A DNA stretch of 63,956 nucleotides, filler included, from Platydemus manokwari (Eukaryota): NCBI GenBank assembly GCA_037951405.1. It is 5 parts of 5 records of this genome, joined end to end, with 100 filler letters (N's around TTAATTAATTAA, not from the genome) between each part and the next. Parts side by side here need not be neighbours in the genome. Positions count along the whole stretch, not along the records: positions 38,941 to 51,484 come from JBBMOY010086676.1; 4 more parts are not named here. One strand, 5' to 3'. The position numbers and the translations under genes are program-made. The notes below the pieces were generated by a model. It worked only from the letters and a program-made list of their open reading frames with translations. It searched no databases and was not told the DNA's origin. Every line of letters begins with the position of its first letter. Position 1 is the stretch's first letter. Of this stretch, positions 4,065-60,180 are shown piece after piece.

Positions 4065-4495
4065 TATTGCTGGGTTACAGAAGAATCGAAGGTTGCAATC
4101 TGCATTTTAGTAGAACGTATGAACACGAATAGCTCTAAACTCAACATAGACTTAACATAAAACATCAACATAAAATTTGCTTTCCATCCGGTAGTTGGCA
4201 TCTTTACATTAGTATTTAATCATATTTTCGTGTAATTTTTGCATCATGTTTTGATTTAATCTTTTATTTATTGGATTTATTGATTTTGTATGTTAGGAAT
4301 TGATCAACCCCTTTGCGTGTGTTACTTTGGCTATTTCCCTTTTTGGAATTATAATTTTCAATTTATGTCGGCTGTGATTGGTTAGTTGTTATGCATGCTT
4401 GGTTGTGTAGGCATGTAAATTCTTAAAGTACTAAAATGAATGTTCCAAGGTGCGAAATCGTTTTTTCTTTTTGTGAAATTTCAACTTTACTCAAC
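4065..4495 (+). repeat. Unclassified ~430-bp interspersed repeat, copy 1
   Basis: Aligns by eye to 59760-60180 (reverse), 36640-37122 (forward) and 38290-38490 (reverse). Shared cores include GTGATTGG..GTTG.TA, TTGTGTAGGCATG and TTTTTCTTTTTG..GAA.TTTCA. Confidence 0.75.
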
Positions 4496-9030: not shown

Positions 9031-10620
9031 TGTGGAATAGTATTAAAAGACTGCGAAAATTAGAATTTTCGTTCACGGAATCTAAGCGATAAAATCTTGA
9101 AATTAACGAGGAAAGCCTAGAGGTGTCTACGACAATACTTGTAGAGAGACAATTAATCAATAAGTTGAGAAAACTACATCGGAAAAAACTTGAGAATCTT
9201 TGGTAATATTGGGTGCTACACCAAAAAGGAGTCAATAGCAAGGTGCGAAGGATCAAGAAATTTACTTGATATAATATTTAAAAATCTATATTATTAAAAT
9301 CATATTTATATCATCCGATTCGTCAAATTAGAATGAACCACTACTCCCAATCACAAATTACTTGAGTTAAAATAACTTGGTTGGAAAAATTAAAGTGTTT
9401 GTTCTGCGAATAATTAACTAAAATAATTTTGGTAATTTGTAATTGTAATTTATCGAAGAAGTTGTAATTTCATTTGATTGTTTCAATGGAGGATTTTTCA
9501 TAAAACACTTTGATTTATAAAAATAGTTAATTGTTAAAAGAGAGTTAAATAATATTTGTTAAATAGATTCGTATTAGAACTCGTTAAACAATTTAATAGA
9601 CTGATAGCCGAGATGGCTAATTGGACTCACTTGTTGGGAACAGTATATATGCCCCAAAACCCAACATATAAATTTGGTGCCCCGAATGAGGACTAATTTA
9701 TCAAATAATTTGTGTGTACAATTCGTTAAATTCGAATTCGTTTTGTGATATAAAAGTATTGTTTGCTTTCAAAAATCGTTGATAATTAAATACAATCAGT
9801 GACGTTGGAAATTCGAATTATTCATAGGTTAAGAAATAGAGATACTTACGAAATAGAGAATATGGATGATAATAGATTAAATAATGTTGTTAAATTACCT
9901 ACAATTGAAGCATATTCCGAAAAACCAGAGGACTTTTTTGATAAATATGAAGCAACTTCTAAAGTTTACGGCTGGAATGACGTGCAGAGACTGACTAGAT
10001 TACCATTTCATTAAAAAGAATACACATTATATGTTCATAAGAATTTGATAAAAGGCAATCAATTACAACCTTTATTTTATGATGGGGTTAAAAAGGCTAT
10101 GAAGCGAGAAATGGTTATGGAAGAGGATTTACAAGCGATGTATACTGAATCATTTAGAAATAGATTTCAAGGATTAAATGAGTCTGAAGGTGCTTATGAA
10201 TTGGCATTAAATAAATTAGTTCGAGCATTTCAAATTGTGAGAGCGCTAGTAGGTCAACCACCATTACCACCTATGCCGATAGAATTTGTAAAGCAAATTG
10301 TCAGAAATCAATTTATGAGTGAAACACATGAATATATCAGAAACACATTGTTAACAATAGCTGTAAATAGTTTAGAGACTCTGGTAAAGAGAGCAAAGAA
10401 CATTGAAGTCCAGTATGGCAACAGAGATAATGAAATTAATCAAGTTAGATTTACTGACGATATAAAACCAATTTTTAAAAAAGAGTACGCCTGAAAATGA
10501 GGAAGATGATCAAAAGAAATTAGATGATAATGTAAAGTGGCATGATTTTAAAAGTTTATTAGAGCGATTCAAGTAGGAACAAAATACGGGAAATATGTTT
10601 AATAATAATGGGAATTGAAA
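9031..10620 (+). mobile_element. Gypsy-type LTR retrotransposon 5' part: LTR (~9031-9666), PBS, degenerate gag; truncated by the contig end
   Basis: Putative LTR TGTGG...CCAACA; PBS TGGTGCCCCGAATGAGG at 9675-9691. Gag-like frame 9862-10494 (PEDFFDKYEATSKVYGWND..RLTRLPFH*K...FRNRFQGLNES) has one in-frame stop. Confidence 0.75.
9675..9691 (+). promoter_or_regulatory. Primer-binding site, similar to the complement of the elongator tRNA-Met 3' end
   Basis: TGGTGCCCCGAATGAGG versus TGGTGCCCCGTGTGAGG (complement of the metazoan elongator tRNA-Met 3' end), located just after the LTR-ending CA. Confidence 0.6.
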
Positions 10621-21447: not shown

Positions 21448-21703
21448 CAACAAATATTGACAATTTTTATTAAAATAAAACCAACAATTTAAAAATTATT
21501 TATTGAGATACAACAAAATTTGTATATTCCTCGCCAATTAAAAAATATCTTGGCATAGAAATATCATTGAAGATCCAAATATCGCTGTAAAAATTGTCGA
21601 GGAATGTTTTGAAAATGCCAAATATAGTAGCGAGGATCGAAGACATGGTTACAAAATTGACTTTAAAATTGGGTCAAAGGACCCTTTTTCTTAACTTAAG
21701 CCC
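21448..21703. mobile_element. Harbinger-like MITE terminus (same family as 15044 and 50537)
   Basis: Reverse-complement match to 50537-50900 with an internal deletion; ends in CTTTTTCTTAACTTAAGCCC. Confidence 0.75.
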
Positions 21704-21965
21704 AAATTTTATATTAAATATTATATTAATTTGTTTATAATTGCATTTAATATATAATTTAGTGTAGTGACTTTTCAGGTCGCTTTTAACGCGTATTTTA
21801 TGAAACAGCAGTGGCTTACAATTAGAATATTAGTTAGAATGTGAATTAATATTTGAAATGAATGAAGGGTCCTATTTGATGAAATTAATATTACACAATA
21901 TCCATAATCATGTTATATAGCTTCATTTTCGTTTGTTCTACTGAGCCAGTTTAATTTTCTTTTCT

Positions 21966-31785: not shown

Positions 31786-33475
31786 TCACTCGCTGAAACT
31801 CTCGTCGTCTGAAATGATTCTCGCTTTCTTTCCTTTCTTTTTCGGTGGCGGATCGGAAAACTAAAAAATAAAAAATCCTCAGAATTTATAAGCAGCCAGA
31901 TGTTTTAAAATTCCACTAAAAACTGCTTAGCAACGCATTCCAAGGGTTCCTTAATTAATCGATCTAAATACTTACATCGCTCATTGAATCGTCTTCTTCT
32001 TCGTCAGTAGAAGACATATCGATCGTTCCTAAACCAATGTATCGATATTAGTTTTCTTTCAAATTAGAACAAACTTTTCTTTTTTATGGAGGAACTCGGC
32101 CTTGCTTTCTTCTTGATATCTGAAATCGAAATTGCGTGGGGATTAGTTTCGTCGTCTTTCTGTTGTTCGAGAAATGCAGCAGTCAATTCTTTGTGACTCG
32201 CTCTTTCTAACATGCGTCGACGTTGATTTTCGCGTCGGAGAGAAACTTTCATTCGTTCTTCTTCGCGCTTGATCATTTCCTGTTGGCGCACATCGGGGTT
32301 CTCTCCAGCAAATGGCAACAATTTCACTTTGGCTGCTTTGTGCGTTTTGTCGGCCAACGACAAAGTGAGCTTACGATGCGTGAATGAATCTGTCGAGTGC
32401 GGCCGGAAAGCAAGCTTGCTCGAAAACACGGCCTGAGCCTGAAGCCCACTACCTTCACGCACAAACAAATGGTTGTGATCGGCACTAATATCCATGGTAT
32501 GGACATCAAATATTTCCCGACCAAGATGTAATGACAAGCTTCCGTCAGACCATCGAACCATTCTAGCATTACTCTCTCGAATAGGTTGATCATTGGCATC
32601 CAACAGTGGTTGGCCCTCACCATCTCGAGCTACACGCCATCTAATAGTATTTTCCACTTTCAATTTCAATCTCGTCCGACCTTCTTCGTCTTGAACCTCT
32701 GATTCATCCATTTCATCTTCATAATACATTGGATCGAAAGGCCTCGTTTCGACAGACAAGAAATTTGGCAATTTAACAAGATGCATCTCTCTAATATTAA
32801 GATATTGTACCTCAAAATTTTTAAAAAATCTGTTTAATACTCTCCAAGATCAGCTTTAATAACCGGGAAATCCACCTCAATAGCTCCGTCGTCGCCGACC
32901 TCATCCACATCACCTTCAACTTGAGCATGATCTGATTCGAATGGCATTCGATACATCTGATTACCTTCTCCACCAGACTAAGCAACAAATCATCAATATT
33001 TCATCAGATTTGGAACAGGACAATATTTTACACATTATCAAGAATTATTACTTCTTCACTAGCTTCCATTATATCTTTTATATTATGTCGATTTTTATCT
33101 TTAACTTTATCTTCATCTTCTATGACGCTTGATTATGTTTTTTAATATCTACAAAAATTATTATCTACCTGTATCACTACCAAAAACATCCTTTTGAGTT
33201 AAATTTACATCATCTGAATCATCACTTTCATTCGAATCCAATCCCAAACTTTTTGCCGTGAGATTATTATTTGTAATTTCTACATCCGAATCATCGCCTG
33301 AACTTAATTGTTTATTTTTATTTCTGGTTGATTTTTCAACATAGCTATCTGAAGAATCGTCACTTATCTCTGTTAGTACAAAATAAGTTCAGTGAAATAA
33401 TAAAATCTTCAAACCTATTTTGCGACTACTAAATTTTTCCGTTTTAATATTTTGATCTTCTGAATCAGAACTCAT
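31786..33475 (-). CDS. LEO1: RNA polymerase II-associated PAF1 complex subunit Leo1, ~436 aa, 7 exons
   Basis: Diagnostic [21 protein letters not shown]...[13 protein letters not shown]...[19 protein letters not shown]...[20 protein letters not shown]. Exons 33415-33475, 33169-33369, 33052-33119, 32841-32977, 32075-32790, 31976-32028, 31786-31860 splice in frame (1311 nt). Confidence 0.93.
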
Positions 33476-36639: not shown

Positions 36640-37122
36640 ACTCGTAATGCATGAAACTGCTGTGTTCTTTAAATAATTAATTAAACTCTGGCTCCAAAAT
36701 GGAAGGAAAGTATTATATTTCCTTGTGTACTACTCAATACACTTACACAAATTTTGCTTCACAAAATATCAACAAAAATCTGGGTTCCAACTGGCAGTTG
36801 GCCTCTTTACATAGATTTTTATATTCGAGATCTCTGTATAATTTTTGTGTCATGTTGTGTCATATTTTTATTTTATATTTGCTTTTTCATGTTGTCATTG
36901 GATTTTTAAATTTTTACATGAATAGGATTGGTCAATCCCTATTTACACGTTGATTTGTAGGTATGGCCTCTTTTCAATTGTCTTTTACCACCTAACTGTG
37001 TAATGATTGGCTGGTTGCTACATCTGTATGATTGTGTAGGCATGCAAATGTTTAAAGTGCTTAATCAAGGATTCTAAAGTTCAAATCCGTTTTTCTTTTT
37101 GCAGAATTTCATCACACTCAAC
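36640..37122 (+). repeat. Unclassified ~430-bp interspersed repeat, copy 2
   Basis: Similar to 4065-4495 (e.g. TTCCAACTGGCAGTTGGCCTCTTTACAT; ATTGTGTAGGCATGCAAAT; TTTTTCTTTTTGCAGAATTTCA..CTCAAC). Confidence 0.7.
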
Positions 37123-38289: not shown

Positions 38290-38490
38290 TAGTGAGATTA
38301 AATTCTGCAAAAGAAAAACGGATTTGCACTTTGAAACCCTTGTGTTAGCATTTTAAACATTTGCATTGTCTACACAACCATACAGGCATAGCAACTAGCC
38401 AATCACAGCGGAGTTAGATGGTAAACGACAATTGAAAAAAAGGACATAGCTGCACGGCAACACACACATAGAGATTGACCATTCCCACTC
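38290..38490 (-). repeat. Unclassified interspersed repeat, partial copy 3 (inverted relative to copy 2)
   Basis: AATTCTGCAAAAGAAAAACGGATTTG...CTACACAACCATACAG..ATAGCAACTAGCCAATCA is the reverse complement of 36920-37120. Confidence 0.75.
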
Positions 38491-38840: not shown

Positions 38841-38940
38841 NNNNNNNNNNNNNNNNNNNNNNNNNNNNNNNNNNNNNNNNNNNNTTAATTAATTAANNNN
38901 NNNNNNNNNNNNNNNNNNNNNNNNNNNNNNNNNNNNNNNN
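38841..38940. other. Artificial contig spacer
   Basis: 44N-TTAATTAATTAA-44N. Confidence 0.95.
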
Positions 38941-40234
38941 TATACTATTTTTGATTTCTATTTTTGGGCTTAATTCTATTTATTTATTTATTAATTTCCA
39001 CTTTAGATCTGTTTTCTATTTATTTGTTTATTTTTCCATATTTTTGAATAAATTTTATATTTATTTATTTGTTAATTTCCTTTTTTAGATCTGTATAATC
39101 TATTTCTGAATCTATTTCTATTTTTATCACAATGATTAATCCTGATATTTTTCTAATTATTATGTTCACATTATTATTAATTATCTGTCATTAACTCTTG
39201 TTATTTTGTTGTTTTGTTTTAATCTATTATTATCTGTAGTTGTTATACATGTTCTATTTTTATTATATTATTTATTATCTATTTGTTATATTATTATTTT
39301 ATATTATTGTTATCCCAACAAAATAAATAAAACTGAAAGAAAATAATAATTGTTAAAATAAAATTATTATTATTTAAAATAAATATTTAAATAAAATAAT
39401 ATTTAATATTGTACACTGAGAGTCTGTACAGTGTTACACGAAATAAATCTTAGTGATCAACTTATTTGTCTTTGGAGTCAGAGTATAATGTTATAATTAT
39501 AAAAATCAATGTTAAAATTTTTGTGAAATCATATAAACCACATTATGCTGTAATAGAACTCGAGGCTCTATCAATTGTGTAAGCCATTGAACAATTTCGC
39601 ACCCTTGTCTATGGACAGGAAATCCATGTTCTCACTGATCATCGGCAGCTGCAATGGCTGCTACAGCATCGAGACACGGCCTCGCGACTGAGCAGATTGG
39701 CTCTCAAACCGCAGCAATATGACATCAAAATGTTATAGAAAGGGAAAAACTAATCCATCAGCTTACGAAATTGATCATGAAACTATATTCATTGCCACGC
39801 AAGTATTGCAAAATGAAACCGATATCAGTGTGCTACAACAGCAAGATCCGGAAGTAAGAAATTATCTCACTTTGATGGATCGCATACCGGCATTATGGAG
39901 CCATCTAATTAATCTTGGAGAACCAGACGAACATTGGCTTAAACCTATGAGGCAATACCACGGGGGAGCAGTGATCGAGACAAACATGATGAAACTAACC
40001 GATAACGATCAACGAATTAGCAAGGCCATTTAAGAGCCCTTATGTCATCGAAAGAGTTAAGGAGACTAATTTTGTCATTCGACCAATGAACAAATCCGCT
40101 GTTGAGCCAATCTGGGTGCATGCAAGTAGGTGCAAGAAATATGAAGAAACCGCCTCTCAACTAGTGAGCACCACAGCACATAAACGAAGAAAGGAGCAGG
40201 ATGTCCTGAAAGCATCAGGAGGCAGATATCCTCT

Positions 40235-41304
40235 CCGATCACAGTTGATCCCGCTCACAATATTGAACCTTCTCAGTATTTATTGGGCACAAACAGAAGA
40301 AGTGCATCACTCGCCTCCATTAGTCGAACCAAATTGGACATACGATTGGGGAGTATTCTGGCTAGGAGTTACTGCTCACCAGGAGCCGCAATATCATTAC
40401 AGCACAACAATTGTCGGTCAAGATGGGATTGGCCGAACACAACATTACACCGCACGATGCATCTTTAATCAACTGCGAAATGGTCAGATCAATGGGCTAG
40501 GAAAAATAACACTTATCATGAAACAGATAAAAGCGAAGCCCGAATACAACTCGCAAGGTTTAAGAAGGGTGTAAATATTACGACTACCGATTCACATATT
40601 ATTATCACAAAGGAACTAAACCCTTTAAACCTGATTATAGGATTCATCACGAACAAGTAAAACGATGAGCACATCTTTATCATATCGAATAAAGAAGGAA
40701 AATATCGCTTCCCACGAAATCAATGTAACACATATTTCATCTCCATTCGTTATCAGCTGATTGAAACAATGGAAATATAAGATCACACGGTAACGACGAT
40801 AACAAACTTGATGAATTGTTCTGTCATCACTACTCCGTAAAGCATCCTGGAGAATACTACCAACAATAATAGCTAAGCCCTTGGAAGGCACTATTGCACT
40901 AATGCGCTCGTAAATTACTAATGACAGCAGCACTATGAACTTCACCACGGTCGTCGTTTCACGGCCAATCAATCGATTGTTACCAGACATCTGGCGAAAA
41001 GTCCAGAAGAAAAAGCACATTATCAACTGCAGCACCCAGCACAACGAACAAGCGCACAGTAATCAACAGGGAAATTAAGCCTGTCATTATGGAAAATCAG
41101 GCACTGTAGGAAGCCGAACAACGAGCCAGTGCAATGGTCATCATCATTTGCAGCTGTGTATTAGTTATGGCTATTGCCACACCAATTGTGATATTCCAGT
41201 GCAAAAGGAAAACTTATCACAGAATCCGATATACTTGGTATGAGGGAAATGACCCTCCAGCCTCCATGCTTACAGCACTAACACACCAAGTCACTACCAT
41301 ATGA
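40235..41304 (+). pseudogene. env-like membrane protein ORF in frame with the pol C-terminus (disrupted)
   Basis: Signal-peptide-like LIPLTILNLLSIYWAQ directly follows RYPLRSQ. Ectodomain fragments contain Cys. C-terminal hydrophobic anchor SAMVIIICSCVLVMAIATPIVIFQC is followed by basic KRK. Confidence 0.6.
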
Positions 41305-41486
41305 CAACTACAGTATAACGATATTAAAGTTAATATCGTCACTAAACTCTATATATTTATTTATATCTACAGCGTACTCTGCAATGAGCAATTTTTAATG
41401 TTGACTTTCAACTATTATTATTGCCCACCAATTAATTACTATGTTTTAGATTCCTGAACGTACAAAATTCAACAATACAATCATTA

Positions 41487-43478
41487 TGGAGTAGAAGCTA
41501 ACGCAGGGGGTCGACCCATGAGTATCAGTTCTTATGCGGTTGAACCAATCATCGCCACCAACTTTCATAAAGAGATGAAACAATCGACGTTGGCGATATT
41601 ACGATAATCAAACGCTTCTACTGAATAATCTCAAATTTGAAGGGCGAGGACCTCGCCACATATCTTTGGTCTTCATAGACCAAGCTGAAATCAAAGATTT
41701 GGTAACCTACTTTCCGAAAGCAAACCAATCGCACAACAAGGAAGTAATTCATCTCACTATTACCGTCCAGCCAATCGAAACCAGAATCGCCGGCGTCTAT
41801 CAAACTAGAAAAAGCCTCTACCTTAGAAGTCCTGCAAAGCAACATGAGGCTCAAATCGGGGCTAATCGTTAGACATCGCGTACCAAACACATTGGTACTA
41901 GAATGGGATATCATCAATATTCCTCGAATTCCCCTTTCTTACTACGACAACACTATCTCTAAACAAGTGATTCACAGTTATCACTCATTTCTGCGTCAAA
42001 TAGTATCCATCGAGGATCTGAAGTCACAGACACTGTTCATTGCTGCCAGAATCGCATCTGCAGCCCCTCGAATTAAGAACACGTACACTAAAACTGTCGC
42101 ATTAGCCGTCACCATCTGGAACTACGAAGGTCACGAACTACTCAACACTAAAATCACTCCACGTGAATACATCCGGCATTGGAGAAACGATGGAACAGAT
42201 GTGTGGCGAGAAGCGGATTGGACAAATGGACGAAATTAAATGTATTCGTCGAGTCAATGCCATAGTGGATCAACATTTATTAGTAGGCTATAAAGTAGCC
42301 GAACTATTGGAACCCTTCCGTATACCTTCCAACCGACTGTTAGGTATACGAGACCTATATCGAGCCAAAAAGCCTCGCGGAATATGGAATAGTGCATGCA
42401 GCCCACTTTGCATGGCATAAAATCCTGAAACAGGTAGTTCCGAATTACCAACTTGGCCGACTGCGCCCGAACCGAACCGTCAATATACTAGAGGAAATTC
42501 GTAGCGTCTACCTCGAACTGGAATACAAGTGGATTGATCACTACTCAATACCAGATGATGAACTTTTAAACAACGGAGAAGCTAACGAAAGCGCGTTACA
42601 ATTTCTGTTGAGTTTAATACCACAGAAATCGAAAAAGAAAACTGAAGAACCAGCAGTCAAACGATCCAAAGCATCAACTAGCAATGAAAGCGGTGAAACA
42701 CGGACCGCCTTTCCGTTCATTAAACCTCGAGTAAAAGTAACTCCTGACCAATCTGAACGAGTAAAACCCGTTTCACAGGTTAGGCAGGTAGAAATTGAAC
42801 CCTCGAGTTGTAATCGTGGATCCATCTACGACGGTCGCTCTCAAAAAAGCAATCCAAGCTATTCCACTCAATCAATCAAGAGTTGTAGAGGTGGATAAAT
42901 CTAAAACAGTAACGTTGAAGAAGACAACAAAAGGAAAGCCATTAAAACTATCGGCATCCAATGAGACAATACACGCCCACATTGCGCAAAAGAAGCCGCA
43001 AGAAAAACGACTGCGTCATAATTACGTCGACCTAGATGCAACCGAAGATGAACAGGAGTCGGAACCACCCAGTGAGCAACTTCGGAAGACATCGTCAGTA
43101 AAAAGCAATTCGGCATCGAACCCCAATTGCTTCCATTAGACAACTCAAGTCATCGATTACTCGGGTCTACCATATCTTCCACAGGATATCTTAACATCTT
43201 TCGAAAATGACAATAAACTATGGTTTCTTACTCAGCTTATCTACACCTGTTCCGACCAGCTCTTTCCAGGAACAGTAAGCTTAGAGTTCGCCAACAGAGA
43301 TCTTGAAATCGCAAGACAATATCCGGAGCAAGCGCAACCTACCGCGCTACCAACGTCAACCACCGATCAACGAGACAGTTGTATCTGGTGCAATCCAAAT
43401 CTCTCTATCAATCCAAGCACTTCTCAAGAGAAGCCATGCCAATGGTGTCAGCCATCCAAATCAAGAAGTTTGAACTAA
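41487..43478 (+). pseudogene. Accessory ORF with a REX4/ISG20-like DEDDh exonuclease-fold region, internal repeat and C-terminal CxxC pair (frameshifted)
   Basis: VALAVTIWNYEGHELLNTKITPREYI and VNAIVDQHLLVGYKV...LLGIRDL parallel REX4 LARVSIVN..G.V.YD.YVKP and L.GRILVGH...IRDT. Overlapping ORF pieces span 41666-43139; the terminus is CIWC...CQWC. Confidence 0.6.
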
Positions 43479-43791
43479 TTAACGATATATGATTATCCTA
43501 TGATTTGACGGCATTATTATTTATTGACTATTCGCCATGTGGCATCTGCATCAAATCTCTCATGTAACCTGACCACTTGACATTTATAGGGACGTAAATG
43601 CTTAAGGGGGGGGGAGATATGTTAGGGATACAATTATAATGTAGAATAAATATAATAATATGTTAAATAAAAATTTCAAGTTTAAACCCAAATTCTTTAT
43701 TATTATTTACAAATCAATTTACTTACAAAATTCTTATGTAAATCAATTTACTCAGCAGGCGTTAAGAAAGAATAAATAAAGCAAGCAATAT

Positions 43792-43950
43792 AAACAAAGC
43801 ACATGTCGTAAAACTAAACAAACACAACTAAGGCAAACAAAGCACATTTCGTAAAATTAAACAAACATAACTAAGGCAAACAAAGCACATTTCGTAAAAA
43901 TAAAACAAACAGAAAGACACAACTAAAGCAAACAAAGCCCAATCTGTAAA
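43792..43950 (+). repeat. 43-bp tandem repeat (about 3.5 units) inside the 3' LTR
   Basis: AAACAAAGCACAT(G/T)TCGTAAAA.TAAACAAACA.AACTAAGGC starts at 43792, 43835, 43878 and, partially, ~43930. Confidence 0.85.
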
Positions 43951-45295
43951 ATTTTAAGGAAATATAAACAAAAATACGCAAATAAAGCCATGCTGTATTC
44001 CATATAGAGCCTTACCCAAAATTAGTATAAATACTGAGCATTTTCTCAGTATAAACGCCTTACAGCGCTATAGTTAGTCAACTATTGAATAATCTTAGCG
44101 ACTTCACTGCAACTGACAATGAGTAATTTTTTCTTTATTCATTCTTCATTTTACAACTGCCCTACACGGGCTTGTCAGCTCTTATAACTCCTTTCTTTCT
44201 AAGCTTTTATCGGGTCTGAGTCTGTGTCCGGGCTATTAGGCGGCACCGACAATACCCATCCTCTTTAGGGATAGGAATCGAAACGTATCTTGTAGAACCC
44301 TTGCAATTTAATTCAGCTCATACGCTGTTGTAATTATTCAGTTTGTATATTTTGTGATTCATTCAATAAATATTATTATCTATGTTGCGTTTTGTTTGTA
44401 TTGTAATTGTCATAATGGTTATATAAGAGTGCTAGTATCCGCAATCCTTGGAGTCAGATTGCCAAACCGCTCAATCCTTGAGATACGAAATCTCCACAAT
44501 GTAATACTATTGTTGGTGTCTGTTATGTATGATTTACTATTTTTAATTAATGTGGTTATTTATAATATCATTTGAGATCATTATATTTTTGTATATTAAG
44601 TGACTTCTGTTTTTGGATATTTGTTAAATTTTTTCTTATGACACCGAGGTCGATTAAACAACTTTTAATTTTGATGCGATTGAACAAAACTTTTCAAATT
44701 TTATGCATATTTTCCGTTGAATAATTAATTTAGTTTTTATTTTATTTCAAAATTTTTCTATGCTTATTGTTTGTGATTGTTTAATGACTCATATGGCTCG
44801 TTATAATCTCCAAAAGAAATTCAGATATCAATATTATCCATTTCTATAAGTTTATTTGAAAATTGAAGATTATGTTATTTTATTAACATATTTTTAAAAA
44901 GAAATTGGTCTAAGTCAAGAAAATGGTTATATGACTTGTCTTCATTAGTACAAATTTTCGACTATGAATTAATCTTATGTATATTTTTCTAAAATTTTAA
45001 TTCAAAGATTCATTTTAATCAAAATTTTTAATTCTTCTCCGTTACTATGTTTGTAAATGCCTTGTTTTCGTGAAATGATGAAACACTCTGGAAGGTTAAC
45101 AGTGAAATATTGATAACTGTGGCATGTAAAACTTAAGGTATTATCTATCTTCAATTAAATATAAAGGAATACAACATGTGTTAATTAATTCATATATGAT
45201 AATCAGTTCAGTTATGAATTGAAATTAAGAAGCAATATTTTACCATTTTGTGAGGGTTCATTTAGTACTACAAAATTTTAAGTCTTAAATGAAGA

Positions 45296-46016: not shown

Positions 46017-49000
46017 TCATTTTCTTTTATTTAAATTCAAACGAGGTATTGATTCGAGTTGACTGATAGGATCATAGAAGTAAATAGTTTTAGAATTCGC
46101 AACAAGTTGAATTGAATTTGTTTTGTTATTAAAGTTATAGTAATTAGCTGCATTTGACCTTTTCTTGTAGTTTGTATCTGATCTCAAGTAATCTATTTTA
46201 GAAAAATCATTCAAATTATAAAAATTGGAATTTGGTTTTGAGTTTTGATTTTTACTTTGATTAACAATACCGGGTAAAACGTTGTTATCAGCATTTTCAT
46301 CTATATTTGATTCAACTTTGTATCTTTCGTCTTCTGTAATTTCTATTCCATCTATCATTAATAAAGTAGGAATCATATGAATCAAATATGGTCGATGTTG
46401 ATGTCTTCTGCTGATAGGATTTCCAAACAATGATATATCAACAAGCGATTCAAAAGAATAGAATAAATCCAAGTCATGCAAATCGGTAATTTTGTTGTTT
46501 ACTAAATATAATCTTTTTAAATATTTTAGATGATAAATCGATGTTAAACTTTTAATACGATTATCATCAAGATGAATTTCTTGTAAATAAATATTATTAT
46601 TAAATGAATTATCAGATATGTATTTTATTCTATTTTGATCTAAAACTAGCTCTGTTAAATTTATCAAACTTCCTAAACCATCTATTGTAGAAATATCATT
46701 TCCTTGCAAAAATAGAGCTCTCAGTGATGGAATATCATTCAAACCCAGCTGAATAATGCTTTTAATATTGTTATACCCTAGATGTAAAACTTCTAGAGAT
46801 CTTAAATTTACTTTATGATTATTATCAGTCTTCGGAATAGGTTGAACAAGCGTTTTGTTACTCCTTGATATGATGGATTCGATTGAATTACTGTTTAGAC
46901 ATAGAACTTTCAAATTACTCATAGCAATTAATCCTGAAAATGAAGTCAAGTTATTATTTTCTAAATTTATGCTTCGTAGATTTTGTAATTTCTCCACTGG
47001 AGTTAAATCAACACTTTTCAAGCAGCAATTTGGAACATCCAATTCTGTTAGAGCATTATAATTTTCATTTCCAAATCTTTCCCGTATAAATTCCAAATTA
47101 AGTCGTCCACCTAATACATCTTTAGAATGATAAATTTCATAATTCTCCACACAGATACCATCAAGACCTTTCAAATGTTTCAGATTATAAATCATATTTA
47201 ATCGATAGTTTTTAATTGTGTGTACCACAGGATTATTATGAAGATCTAATATTACAAGATTTGTAAGATTCTTCAAAATAAAAATTTCTGTTGATTCGCA
47301 TACACAATTATTAGCGGCATATAATTCAGTTAAACAATTACAATCTTCAATTCCACTAAAAGATGACAATTTATTTGTGTGAATTGAAAGAACTTGTAGA
47401 TTAGTCAAGTTTCTTAAATATGAAATAGATGTTACATAATTTTCATTAAGCGATATTCTTTTTAATTTTTTCATTTTTGACAGGTTTTCAATATCTGTAA
47501 TTGTATTGTTGTCTAAAATCAATTCTTCCAAATGACTACAATTATCCAAACATTCTATTTTTGAGATAAGATTATTAGATAAAGATACATATTTTAAATT
47601 TACCAATCTTTCAATGTTGGAGATTTTTGTAATATATTGATTATCTAAACATAAAGACGTTATTCTCATAAATTCGGAATGTTCTTTGATTTGATTTGAA
47701 ATGCTATTGTCACTACAAATCATTAAAATATTTGCCATATTATCCAATAACAATGTGCGTGGATTAAGTGTATCAGTTCTTCCATAATTCATAATTTGTA
47801 TGTCTAATATTCGCCATTTACTCGCCAGATCATTGGCTAATTTTATTTCACAATCTTCAATGTCTTCATCATTAAACATTTTTAAATATTTCAATCCACT
47901 TATTATTCTCAATCGAACACTTTTTGGTTTCTGAAATAAATTGTATTTCACATTCAATTTGATTAAATTAGGAACACATCTGTGTAATGTTGATATTTCC
48001 TCCTTTGTTTTCACTAAAAAATTATTTTGAATATTAAGACTCATCAATTTTGGTAATTCGTGCATTTCAAACAAAGTTTGGATTTGATTAAAACTAACAT
48101 CAAGAATTTTCAGTTTTCGATTACCAATATCCTTCAAACTTAATAAATTATTGAACGGCATGAACAATTCTTTCAAATTTATTAATAATGATAATTCCGA
48201 TACATTTTGTAAATAAGAATTTGTAAGATTTAATATGGTTATATTTTCCAGTGAACATTCTAGTGTCCTAAATATTGATGTGAGACAATTATTTTTTATT
48301 TCATCAAAGTTCAATTTTTTCTTGATATTATCAAAATCTCTATCCAATTCGTCTATTGAAGGAATTTCAGACATGAAATCTTTTTGAATCCCATGATATA
48401 TATAATAAAACTTGGACCTTTCTGACTCTCTCAATACATATTCATAATCAACAATGTATTCTGGCACTAATAATTTATTCGTTTTAAAATACCAGTCATA
48501 CTTATATTTTGAGCATGAACAAATATTTTGATGTTCTCGTTTTGTAGTTGCGATTTTATAAGTTTCAAACAATGAATTGGTAGTGAGGAAATTTTCAAAT
48601 TCACTATTCAAAACTGGATTCGATTTCGATAGTCCCACGAAAGATTTCACTAGAATCACTCGTCCATAGTAAACATTGTTATTGGAACTTCCTTTCATTT
48701 TTATCAAATCACCATTGTATAAACTATTGGTCAATTTAATCACTCCGCTATCAGAAGATGAATACAAAGTATCCAGTATGGATAACGGACATTTGTTGCC
48801 ATTTTCGTCAATAAAAAGAAATAAATAATCTTGGATTTTACAATCATCAATGCCAAATTTTTCATTTCTCTCAACATTCTCGTAAAGCTTTTGAATCAAT
48901 TTGACATAATTGGATTCAATTTGAAAATTTTTTATCTTTATAACTCGATGGGTTTTTATTTGTAGGAAATCATCAAATCCAAATTCAGAATTACAAAATC

Positions 49001-50215
49001 GAGAACTGATCAATTCATTGCAAAGATTTACCCAAATCTTATCTGAACTCAATTCGAATCTAAAATTACCGCAGCTTGAGAATTCTAATTGAAATAAGCT
49101 TTTGATTTCACTTTTATATATTTCAATTTTTTTTAAATAAAATTTTATTTCGGTTTGATATGATTTTATAAACTTTTCCACACTTTCAATTCTATCATTA
49201 ATTTCTTTTATTTCATGACTATTGTACATATCTTTCCTCGGCGAAGGCAAAGAAAAGACATCAGTAGGTTTGGTTTTCGAATATTGGAAATTCAGATTCA
49301 TTAGCATTGATAATTTTGATAAATTTTGTAATCTTGTTTTTTGATATTCACACAATTTATCATAATTTATTTTTAATTGAAGCTTTATAAATGACATATC
49401 TCTGTCAACAGATTCCAGTTTCATAAAGTAGAATAACTTCTTCTTATTAATGGTATTTAAAACAAGTTCTTTTAAGTAATTTGAAGTAATATCAAAAGTA
49501 TCTAAACGTTTCAAATTCGGAAAGTGATAAATAAAAAATATGAAATAGTTTATATGATGAAACACCGGATTAGGTACATAATCTGGTCCATTTATGCTTA
49601 GATATTTCAGCTTAGGTAATCCACGCAGGTTCAATAAGTCATCGACATATTCTAGTTGGTTACCCGAAATGTCAAGTTTTATAATTGAAGTATTATTAAT
49701 TAGACTGTTTCCAATGTACTTAATCTCGTTTCCTGCTACATTTAATTCTCTTAATAGAATAAGTTCATCCAATCCCTCAATAAGTTCAATTTTGTTATTA
49801 TTCAGCCAAATAACTTCTAAAGATTTTAAAGAATATAAATTCTTAATTTTTCTAATTTTGTTTCCATATAAATATAAATTTTTAATCTGGTTACAGAGGC
49901 TTAAGCCTTCAATATCTGTAATACTACATTCACATATCCATAAACTTACTAAATTAGTACACATTTCTAAATTTTCAATAATCGTAATTGGCTGATTGAT
50001 TATTATTAACTGACTCAGACTTGGAAATGAAAACATTTTCACAATTCTCGGAAATCCTGAAAAAAATATTTCTAACTTTTCAAATTTGAACCCTTCATTA
50101 GTTAAAGAGGTAGGTTCTATGCCATTGGCACTGCATAAATTGTTAAAAATAACATCATCTTCCTCATGATTTGTATCCTAAAAATAAATTTATTCGAAGT
50201 TATTTATTTTACCAT
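46017..50215 (-). CDS. LRRC9: Leucine-rich repeat-containing protein 9, ~1387 aa
   Basis: The frame is open upstream of the tracked GTG to an acceptor at 50178-50179. An ATG-only first exon at 50213-50215 and a 35-nt intron give MDTNHEEDDVIFNNLCSANG...KLEIFFSGFPRIV, matching the LRRC9 N-terminus (LC..NG...KLEMFF.GYPRIV). SDS22-type LRR clusters flank a non-LRR middle region. Confidence 0.9.
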
Positions 50216-50536
50216 ATAGTCAATAAATTAATCCAAGTGTATCTAACCATTTATAATTTCGCTTCACGAATAGGCTTGTATAGCAATAATTTAAACACAC
50301 ACATATATTTTTATAAATCTTTACTATGTGAACTTATTTGTATATAGAAATTATAAGTAATTTAATATACTTAACTTTATTTTTTGGCTTATTATCGTTA
50401 AAGAAAATATAAATTTGTGTTTTGCAAAAATAGTTTTTATACTTTAAAAATACCACGACTAATATGCACCTAAATGATTTATTTTAACTTCAATAATGTG
50501 AAAATATTCAAAAAATTGGCATCGTATAACAATTTA

Positions 50537-51484
50537 GGGCTTAAGTTAAGAAAAAGGATCCTTTGACCCAATTTTAAAGTAATGACTTTTCGTGAGTTAT
50601 TTGATATTAGAATTTATTTGTAATCATATTTTATTGAAATTTTTACATAAAATTCAATTTTAGATTAAAAACCAAAAATCAACTCTAACAATCAAAAACC
50701 ATGTATTCGATGCCCGCTACTATAGTGAGACTTCAAAACATTCCTCGACGATTTTTACGACGATATTTGCATCTTCAATAATATTTTTATGCCAAGATAT
50801 TTCTTAATTGGCGAGGAATCTACAATTTTTGTTGTATCTCAATAAATAACTTTTAAATTGTTGGTTTTATTTTAATAAAAATTGTCAATATTTGTTGATT
50901 GTTAGTTTACTAAATTATTTGTAAATATAATATATTTTTAAATATAAATTTTTGTGTGAGTCCGTGCACCAAAATTACTTTATTCAGAAGGTCAAAAAGG
51001 AACAAGGCTGAATTGTTGAACCAAAGCCCTATCTGAATTCCGAAACTTATATATTTATGGCATCTTCACCTGTCCGATTTATTTGATTTGGATCAAATCT
51101 TCATTTCATTACGACATCGACAAATATGGTATCTATGTATCCAATCTATTAAATGATATTAACATACTTATTTTGAGAGTAAACGTTAGTACCTTGTTCC
51201 TTGCACTTCTCAATAATTTAGAAATCACTTTTTTATAAAATAACTCTAAAAATCTTAGATATCATTCCAATTGCTTCTAGTGTTAAAGAAGGGGTCCTCG
51301 CTGATTTTCAATTAATTGCATTTTGACCTGCTTTGACGCGTTTTTAAAATAATTAATTTTTAGGAGATGTTAAAAATCCTGTGCATGTATTATTTGATTT
51401 TGAATAACTATTAGGTGTATTAGTATGATTCCGGCTTTTACAAAAATGAGTTAAAATTTGTATTTCAATGAATAAATTTAATTG
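50537..51484. mobile_element. Harbinger-like MITE, longest copy, truncated by the contig end
   Basis: tta|GGGCTTAAGTTAAGAAAAAGGATCC at 50537; contains segments matching both 21448-21703 and 15160-15330. Confidence 0.75.
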
Positions 51485-59759: not shown

Positions 59760-60180
59760 CCATTGTGTTGAGAAACGAAAAAGAAAAGAAAAAAAGAAAA
59801 GCGACAGAAAAAAACGATTTCTCATAATTTATACTTTACTCTGGCACTTTAAGCATGTGTCATGTCTACACAATTATACAGGCCTAGCAATCAACGAATC
59901 ACAACTGACATAAATGGAAAATTATAATTCTAAAAATAGTCATAAATCAATAAATTCAATTGGAATTTTAGAAAAAAGATTAAATCAAAACGTTATGCTA
60001 AAGTTACACACAAATCTCAAGGATAAATGATGATCCCTAACTGCAAGCTGGAAGCCAAGTTTTATGTTGATGTTTTATGTTAATGCTTTGTTAAGTTTAC
60101 AGTTATTCGTGTACGTATTGTATAGTACATTCTAGTGATATATGGGTTGCAAACTTCGGTTCCTTTGGAACTCAACAATT
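59760..60180 (-). repeat. Unclassified ~430-bp interspersed repeat, copy 4
   Basis: Reverse complement of 4065-4495 (e.g. TTTATGTTGATGTTTTATGTTAA versus TTAACATAAAACATCAACATAAA; GACATAAATGGAAAATTATAATTC). Confidence 0.75.

Follow-up and report, generated by a model that had tools for sequence, protein, structure and literature searches.

What are the two extra ORFs that follow pol in a Gypsy-type element of Platydemus manokwari, and is the first of them an envelope? The original prediction read this locus as a decayed copy of a potentially infectious lineage, with an env-like protein of unassigned class fused to pol and an accessory ORF behind it. We analyzed the locus in its window, i.e., the whole stretch of 63,956 nucleotides along which all positions are counted here.

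A decayed copy and its family

The locus holds a dead copy of a Gypsy element, of which the 3' half is left in decayed form. RNase H, integrase tail, polypurine tract and LTR are present and the frames are broken, in agreement with the decayed Gypsy-type copy that had been predicted. The following features were assigned.

39523..39735, plus strand: C-terminal part of a Gypsy-type RNase H with one in-frame stop (PF17917, E 1.5e-14)
39736..40004, plus strand: remnant of the RNase H–integrase interval, zinc finger and catalytic core gone
40005..40241, plus strand: integrase C-terminal GPY/F tail ending in RYPLRS (profile of relatives)
40242..40289, plus strand: putative internal signal sequence that continues the frame of the integrase tail (hydropathy and shuffle control)
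40290..41136, plus strand: ectodomain (broken, about 280 codons) of a putative type I membrane protein
41137..41304, plus strand: predicted transmembrane anchor (41137–41193), followed up to the next stop by a short, basic cytoplasmic tail (hydropathy)
41518..43478, plus strand: broken third gene of about 653 codons, with barrel, exonuclease domain and low-complexity C-terminal part
43604–43617, plus strand: polypurine tract preceding the LTR
43620–44498, plus strand: 3' LTR of 879 bp, TG...CA, 3' end provisional

The window is AT-rich, mostly 21–35% GC, and also holds a Leo1 host gene (32064–32849, minus strand; PF04004, E 6e-51) and a long leucine-rich-repeat gene (46017–50177, minus strand). 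The element at 39521–43619 has 42% GC between flanks of 17% and 25%, and its 5' boundary appears near 39550 as a climb in GC from about 0.2 to 0.4–0.6. The copy is 5'-truncated: it starts inside RNase H with AT-rich host DNA further upstream, and tblastn with two intact relatives found neither RT nor protease upstream of RNase H in the window. A repeat search of the window found no 5' LTR or second LTR copy, and the 3' end of the LTR is placed by this one LTR and a drop in GC from 0.39 to 0.19. The LTR contains a 43-bp tandem repeat (43792–43911). A polypurine tract before the 3' LTR, listed as a feature of Metaviridae (PMC7879559), was found as the original prediction had it, and at the junction of tract and LTR a 14-base run is common to the window and L003, one of five metagenome loci (L001 to L005) that carry relatives of the third gene.

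The window RNase H was 48–51% identical over 69 aa to L001 and L004, the two relatives compared. RNase H followed by the integrase tail is the pol order of Metaviridae, and L001 and L004 have the full series of RT, RNase H and integrase. An RNase H–integrase profile of these two loci aligned to the window at positions 68–116 and 539–587 only; profile positions 117–538 (422 positions) stand against about 94 codons in the window, so about 330 codons are missing. Pfam gave no match to rve or H2C2 in the pol remnant, integrase zinc finger and core being absent. The GPY/F tail, recovered at about 40005–40157 by a profile of the same two relatives (E 6e-6), belongs to an ORF at 39999–40574 that stays open through RYPLRS (40224–40241) and into the signal-like stretch, as had been claimed. 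RNase H had been placed in one frame with the tail (ORF 40086–40574), but it lies in a different frame and outside the ORF. The motif [RN]YxLR comes 43 aa after GPY in L001 and L004 and 63 aa after it in the window.

Other copies were found in one public DNA run that contains the stretch and is possibly its source sample, with depth not being equal to copy number. In that run, 402 contigs aligned to 39470–43630 at 80–100% identity and covered 30/30 bins (55 contigs at 99% or above, 75 at 95–99%, 116 at 90–95% and 156 under 90%); given their degree of divergence, the divergent contigs would be other copies and not alleles. Among the eight of 425 pieces that were listed, one contig, about 16% diverged, spans integrase tail, signal and ectodomain (40099–40302 and 40381–40553), one runs from the cytoplasmic tail into the third ORF (41284–41858, 88 differences), and one joins the ectodomain to the exonuclease across a 1,651-base deletion. 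Since diverged copies connect each of the two ORFs with the integrase tail and with the other ORF, both are genuine cargo of a multi-copy family. The outcome that the original prediction had named as speaking against it, accessory ORFs absent from other copies as in a one-off insertion, did not occur, both being present in diverged copies.

The third gene

The ORF of about 2 kb that had been predicted before the polypurine tract and 3' LTR is not open, being broken over three frames with a longest open run of 184/653 codons, but homology shows that it was originally one gene. Its identity, an ISG20-like exonuclease that is likely dead, had been missed in the original prediction.

A full HMMER search with the piece 41748–42239 among 1.84 billion representatives returned four unnamed proteins (E 1e-5 to 2e-4). 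When the relative P0003 was searched back, it gave four collinear matches at about 41793–43307 in three frames (E 4e-19). A profile search added six relatives and a metagenome scan five loci. The third ORF has at least 11 relatives, and it takes the same place in other elements. When 11 relatives were made into a profile without any window row, four third-ORF pieces ranked first and in the correct order among 1,361 six-frame segments (E 2e-20, 6e-14, 0.002 and 0.08). Single third-ORF pieces, also when read across one frameshift with X, matched no Pfam family and gave chance RelE matches in PDB; a word-index search with a third-ORF piece among longer proteins, in itself weak evidence, gave no match.

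The gene was identified through its relatives, to which the window is linked by the P0003 back-search and the 11-relative profile. P0004 scored above the Pfam cut-off for RNase_T, and the family profile matched ISG20L2 (7yw5, E 3e-16), ISG20 and SDN1. The AlphaFold model of P0009 (pLDDT 72.8) aligned with ISG20 at Z 19.4 and an rmsd of 2.1 over 159 residues, whereas RNase D ranked 33rd with Z 9.8. For the first 135 residues of P0009, AlkB-like and cupin barrels were tied at Z 9–10. The models identify the third gene as a predicted double-stranded beta-helix barrel (cupin/AlkB-like) joined to an ISG20/ISG20L2-like DEDDh exonuclease.

In one group of relatives the catalytic positions D-E-(D/E)-H-D were present in 7/7 aligned proteins; L002 and L005 show the same motifs, so that nine relatives keep the catalytic residues. 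The third motif has His in intact relatives, which makes the enzyme DEDDh, and the RNase D-like DEDDy motif of the rotifer type was not encountered. The window's exonuclease domain, at about 41980–42550, has no first catalytic Asp, nor have the three others, P0001, P0002 and P0003 (3/3). In the alignment the window covers the first two catalytic positions only, with A and R there. P0001–P0003 and the window form one clade (95/95), in which the window row fills 21% of the columns and sits on a long branch. Because the loss is common to open, intact-looking genes, the lost first Asp is likely a trait of the lineage and not decay of the window copy. The window's exonuclease likely had no cutting activity.

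The membrane protein behind the integrase

Hydropathy alone was used to call the signal sequence; its 11-residue value of 2.0 was attained in 223 of 10,000 shuffles. The ectodomain, put at about 350 codons in the original prediction, measures about 280–290 codons and is open for its first third only; the longest stop-free run is 101 codons counted from 40269, and runs after 40575 are 45–56 codons long. The predicted anchor was confirmed as a strong one, with a 19-residue hydropathy of 2.89 at 41137–41193; 16 of 1,346 stop-free six-frame segments of the window attained 2.8. No homologue of the ectodomain was found by word-index search among longer proteins, which is weak evidence, or in viral contigs, and none of four ectodomain pieces matched a Pfam fusogen family, with sensitivity limited by their decay. 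The open piece has one Cys and no furin site. The best match of a gB profile in the window had an E of 1.1 and fell outside the ectodomain, and the window holds no gB gene.

The five metagenome loci place such a protein in its context. All five belong to the catalytically intact exonuclease group, the window's three nearest relatives, P0001–P0003, lying outside the context data; the upstream reach was sufficient for pol in L001 and L004 and too short in L002 and L003. L001 and L004 are each one reading frame of more than 3,000 residues; a continuous gag-env-pro-pol frame was reportedly also seen by Sacco et al. in 2022. Upstream of protease and RT, both carry a gB-type fusion glycoprotein (PF24664; E 5e-94 in L001, 9e-84 in L004), which is followed by three or two proteases, RT, RNase H and integrase. 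After the integrase come [RN]YxLR and a signal, then an ectodomain (290 or 268 aa, similar in size to the window's) with its anchor and, before the 3' end, the exonuclease gene. Signal, ectodomain and anchor stand just before the exonuclease gene in 3/3 loci with enough upstream DNA (of five), L005 having a different, Cys-rich signal-to-anchor protein there. The N-terminal regions of L001 and L004 gave no match to any gag family. Of the hydrophobic segments of L004, the strongest four, at 506, 1074, 2602 and 2891, would pair as signal and anchor twice and so leave the enzymes cytosolic.

A 100-residue repeat makes up the ectodomains of L001 and L004. For the repeat model (pLDDT 71), nearly all listed Foldseek rows were fibronectin type III, with E 0.003 or weaker and none below 0.001; the best Z of 8.8 is near background for beta-sandwiches, and there was no clear viral structural match. 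The modeled fold resembles fibronectin III. Homology of the window ectodomain to this repeat is not supported, no match having been found. The post-integrase slot appears to be common to the window and its relatives; the ectodomains differ, and homology of the slot proteins is open to doubt.

From the predicted pol-fused env-like protein, a pol-fused type I membrane protein remains. Its role as an envelope fusogen is probably wrong, since no fusogen family matched and since in 2/2 long relatives the slot holds fibronectin-III-like repeats with the gB-type fusogen upstream of pol.

Interpretation and comparison with known systems

We consider it probable that the locus carries a dead copy, truncated at its 5' end and with an internal deletion, from a family with a pol-fused membrane protein and an ISG20-like gene, likely of a lineage with a gB-type fusogen upstream of pol. 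We infer that the relatives' layout carries over to the window's own family and, with it, the upstream gB gene, whose slot is missing from this copy. The protein behind the integrase is likely not the fusogen but an additional, variable surface protein, and the "potentially infectious lineage" of the original prediction is plausible by way of a gene outside the window.

In such an element, one polyprotein would be made. Its two ectodomains would each enter the ER by means of an internal signal paired with an anchor, while the enzymes would remain cytosolic and be released by the element's protease and signal peptidase. The gB protein would serve membrane fusion, and the post-integrase protein could act as a variable or exchangeable attachment protein or (immune) decoy. 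The third gene would have a message of its own. Its product in the intact group would be a predicted active 3'-5' RNA exonuclease; in the window's group it might be a nuclease-dead RNA-binding protein that shields element RNA from host decay or silencing. Herpesvirus gB-type fusogens require partner glycoproteins, and our literature search found no partner glycoprotein named for gB-carrying retroelements. It is tempting to speculate, with some reserve, that these are two-glycoprotein invertebrate endogenous retroviruses, in which a gB-type fusogen and, as its partner after the manner of herpesviruses, a fast-changing receptor-binding or decoy glycoprotein come from the same polyprotein and a captured relative of the antiviral nuclease ISG20 has in one branch become a dead, RNA-shielding decoy directed at host defence. 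In place of an "unknown fusogen" there is then a two-protein design for entry that can be tested.

Another reading, which we think rather unlikely, is a family with a post-integrase membrane protein and a pseudo-exonuclease but without gB, lost or never had; it would move within cells or through direct contact between them, with the membrane protein as the only accessory at the surface. The absence of gB from the window fits this, as does the fact that gB was seen in another exonuclease group than the window's, and Drosophila MDG1-group elements are described, in the available text of PMC11952523, as spreading independently of an envelope via a small membrane protein. The other landmarks, however, are common with the gB-carrying relatives, namely the post-integrase motif, signal, ectodomain size, anchor, exonuclease with the same N-domain and purine tract junction.

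We give little credence to the view of the original prediction that the pol-fused protein is itself an envelope fusogen of an unassigned class. It has a signal and an anchor, sits at the position after pol where some Metaviridae carry env genes (PMC7879559), and could differ from the relatives' fibronectin-like repeats, to which it has no detectable kinship. Against this, its ectodomain of about 280 codons compares with about 600 both for gB and for rotifer TelKA's F-type env (for the latter, available text of PMC5408684), no piece matched a fusogen family, the open piece has the single Cys and lacks the furin site noted above, and the relatives have non-fusogen folds in the slot and the fusogen elsewhere. 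According to the same available text, signal, anchor and glycosylation sites alone had led to several ORF3s being mislabelled as env (Rodriguez et al., PMC5408684), and a signal-plus-anchor ORF behind the integrase should with like caution not necessarily be annotated as env. Two ORFs that are not open in this copy, and an ectodomain without a homologue in the searches run, would fit a single nested insertion or frames arising by chance in decayed DNA, but this is very improbable and largely refuted by the linkage in diverged copies and by the third ORF, which has at least 11 relatives and is placed alike in other elements.

Among the nearest known systems are GAG-ENV-POL errantivirus-like Ty3/gypsy elements with HSV/gB-type env from Nematoda, Bryozoa and Platyhelminthes (Chary and Hayashi, PMC13524379, also citing Sacco et al. 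2022). Their gB-type env lies upstream of pol, as in L001 and L004 (2/2 long relatives), whereas the window copy has no region that would hold env. In the available text no second post-integrase membrane protein is described for them, and the words "exonuclease" and "fused" do not occur in the main text (PMC13524379). The family may already be catalogued in the supplement of that paper (1,512 elements), Repbase, Dfam or GyDB. Exonuclease cargo of the DEDDy type and the gag-env-pol order are each known, and we found no report of their combination as seen here; a literature search, with subscription journals and repeat databases outside its scope, found no ISG20-like DEDDh gene, barrel–exonuclease fusion or second post-integrase glycoprotein in Gypsy elements.

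The exonuclease domain has the same fold and sequence profile as human ISG20 and ISG20L2 (PDB 1wlj, 7yw5), to which it is about 20% identical; the differences are its location on an element, the extra barrel and, in the window's group, the absent first Asp. Two DEDD systems offer a functional analogy only: the arenavirus nucleoprotein ExoN, a viral exonuclease that dampens host RNA sensing, and Maelstrom, a DEDD-derived RNA-binding protein without the canonical site (both in the available text of PMC7968707). Neither was a top structural match, and homology does not reach beyond the superfamily fold.

A DEDDy exonuclease is a known accessory domain (available text of PMC6338049), and a counterpart in gene order is found in the Juno and Vesta LTR retrotransposons of bdelloid rotifers, whose ORF3 encodes an exonuclease (Rodriguez et al. 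2017, available text of PMC5408684). As here, a DnaQ-like exonuclease forms a separate ORF between pol and the 3' LTR, and the rotifer elements also have small membrane-protein ORF3s; the roles discussed for rotifer ORF3s in that text provide an analogy for the third gene. In the window's family, LTR elements would have acquired an RNA exonuclease independently, taking it from the ISG20 branch and not the RNase D/Rrp6 branch. With live and likely dead forms as a natural pair, one could test directly what makes retroelements retain genes of this kind. The Juno and Vesta enzymes are RNase D-like DEDDy with intact motifs ("DEDDh" has 0 occurrences in the available text of PMC5408684), whereas the window's family has an ISG20/ISG20L2-like DEDDh enzyme with an N-terminal barrel, a likely dead subgroup and, besides, a membrane protein fused to pol.

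The 5' end of the element and the filler gaps

N-filled gaps with the TTAATTAATTAA spacer were found at positions 38841-38940 of the window and also at 10620, 18830, 21348 and 51485. The Gypsy element and the nearest N-filled gap are separated by about 580 bases of AT-rich DNA, so the gap does not mark the point at which the element is truncated 5'.

Other genes and repeats in the window

Elsewhere in the window, the following features were observed:
46017-50177 (-), leucine-rich-repeat gene, 1,386 uninterrupted codons
53178-54457 (-), remains of a second Gypsy element, in which RT, RNase H and integrase are recognisable as traces
10015-10494, 159-codon ORF that looks by eye like part of a retroelement gag
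36971-37099 and 38309-38438, pair of ~130-bp inverted repeats, 82-86% similar, with 1.2-1.3 kb between them
21448-21714 and 50526-50897; 4118-4415 and 59861-60117, further dispersed inverted pairs of like kind

The leucine-rich-repeat gene, which we take to be LRRC9-like, is unusual in being intron-free across 4 kb. The second Gypsy remnant is far more decayed than the element at ~39523..44498, and a Pfam search with the 159-codon ORF matched no family. The pair of ~130-bp repeats is probably a MITE or a decayed DNA transposon.

The third gene and its intact relatives

In the two intact metagenome relatives, L001 and L004, an additional ORF, coiled-coil-like by eye, sits before or after the exonuclease gene:
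L004:9174-9842, 222 residues
L001:11613-12050, 145 residues

Neither ORF matched a family in a Pfam search. About 70 bases upstream of the ATG of the window's third ORF, a T-rich tract with a terminal AG (41440-41449) resembles a splice acceptor by eye, and a comparable tract precedes the 222-residue ORF; judged from sequence, the tract in the window would be compatible with a spliced message.

The polyproteins of the relatives differ in layout. While that of L001 (L001:1-9663) contains three protease domains and, between the second and third (~residues 1380-1565), an additional unit of signal, fibronectin-like repeat and anchor, that of L004 has two proteases and lacks this unit.
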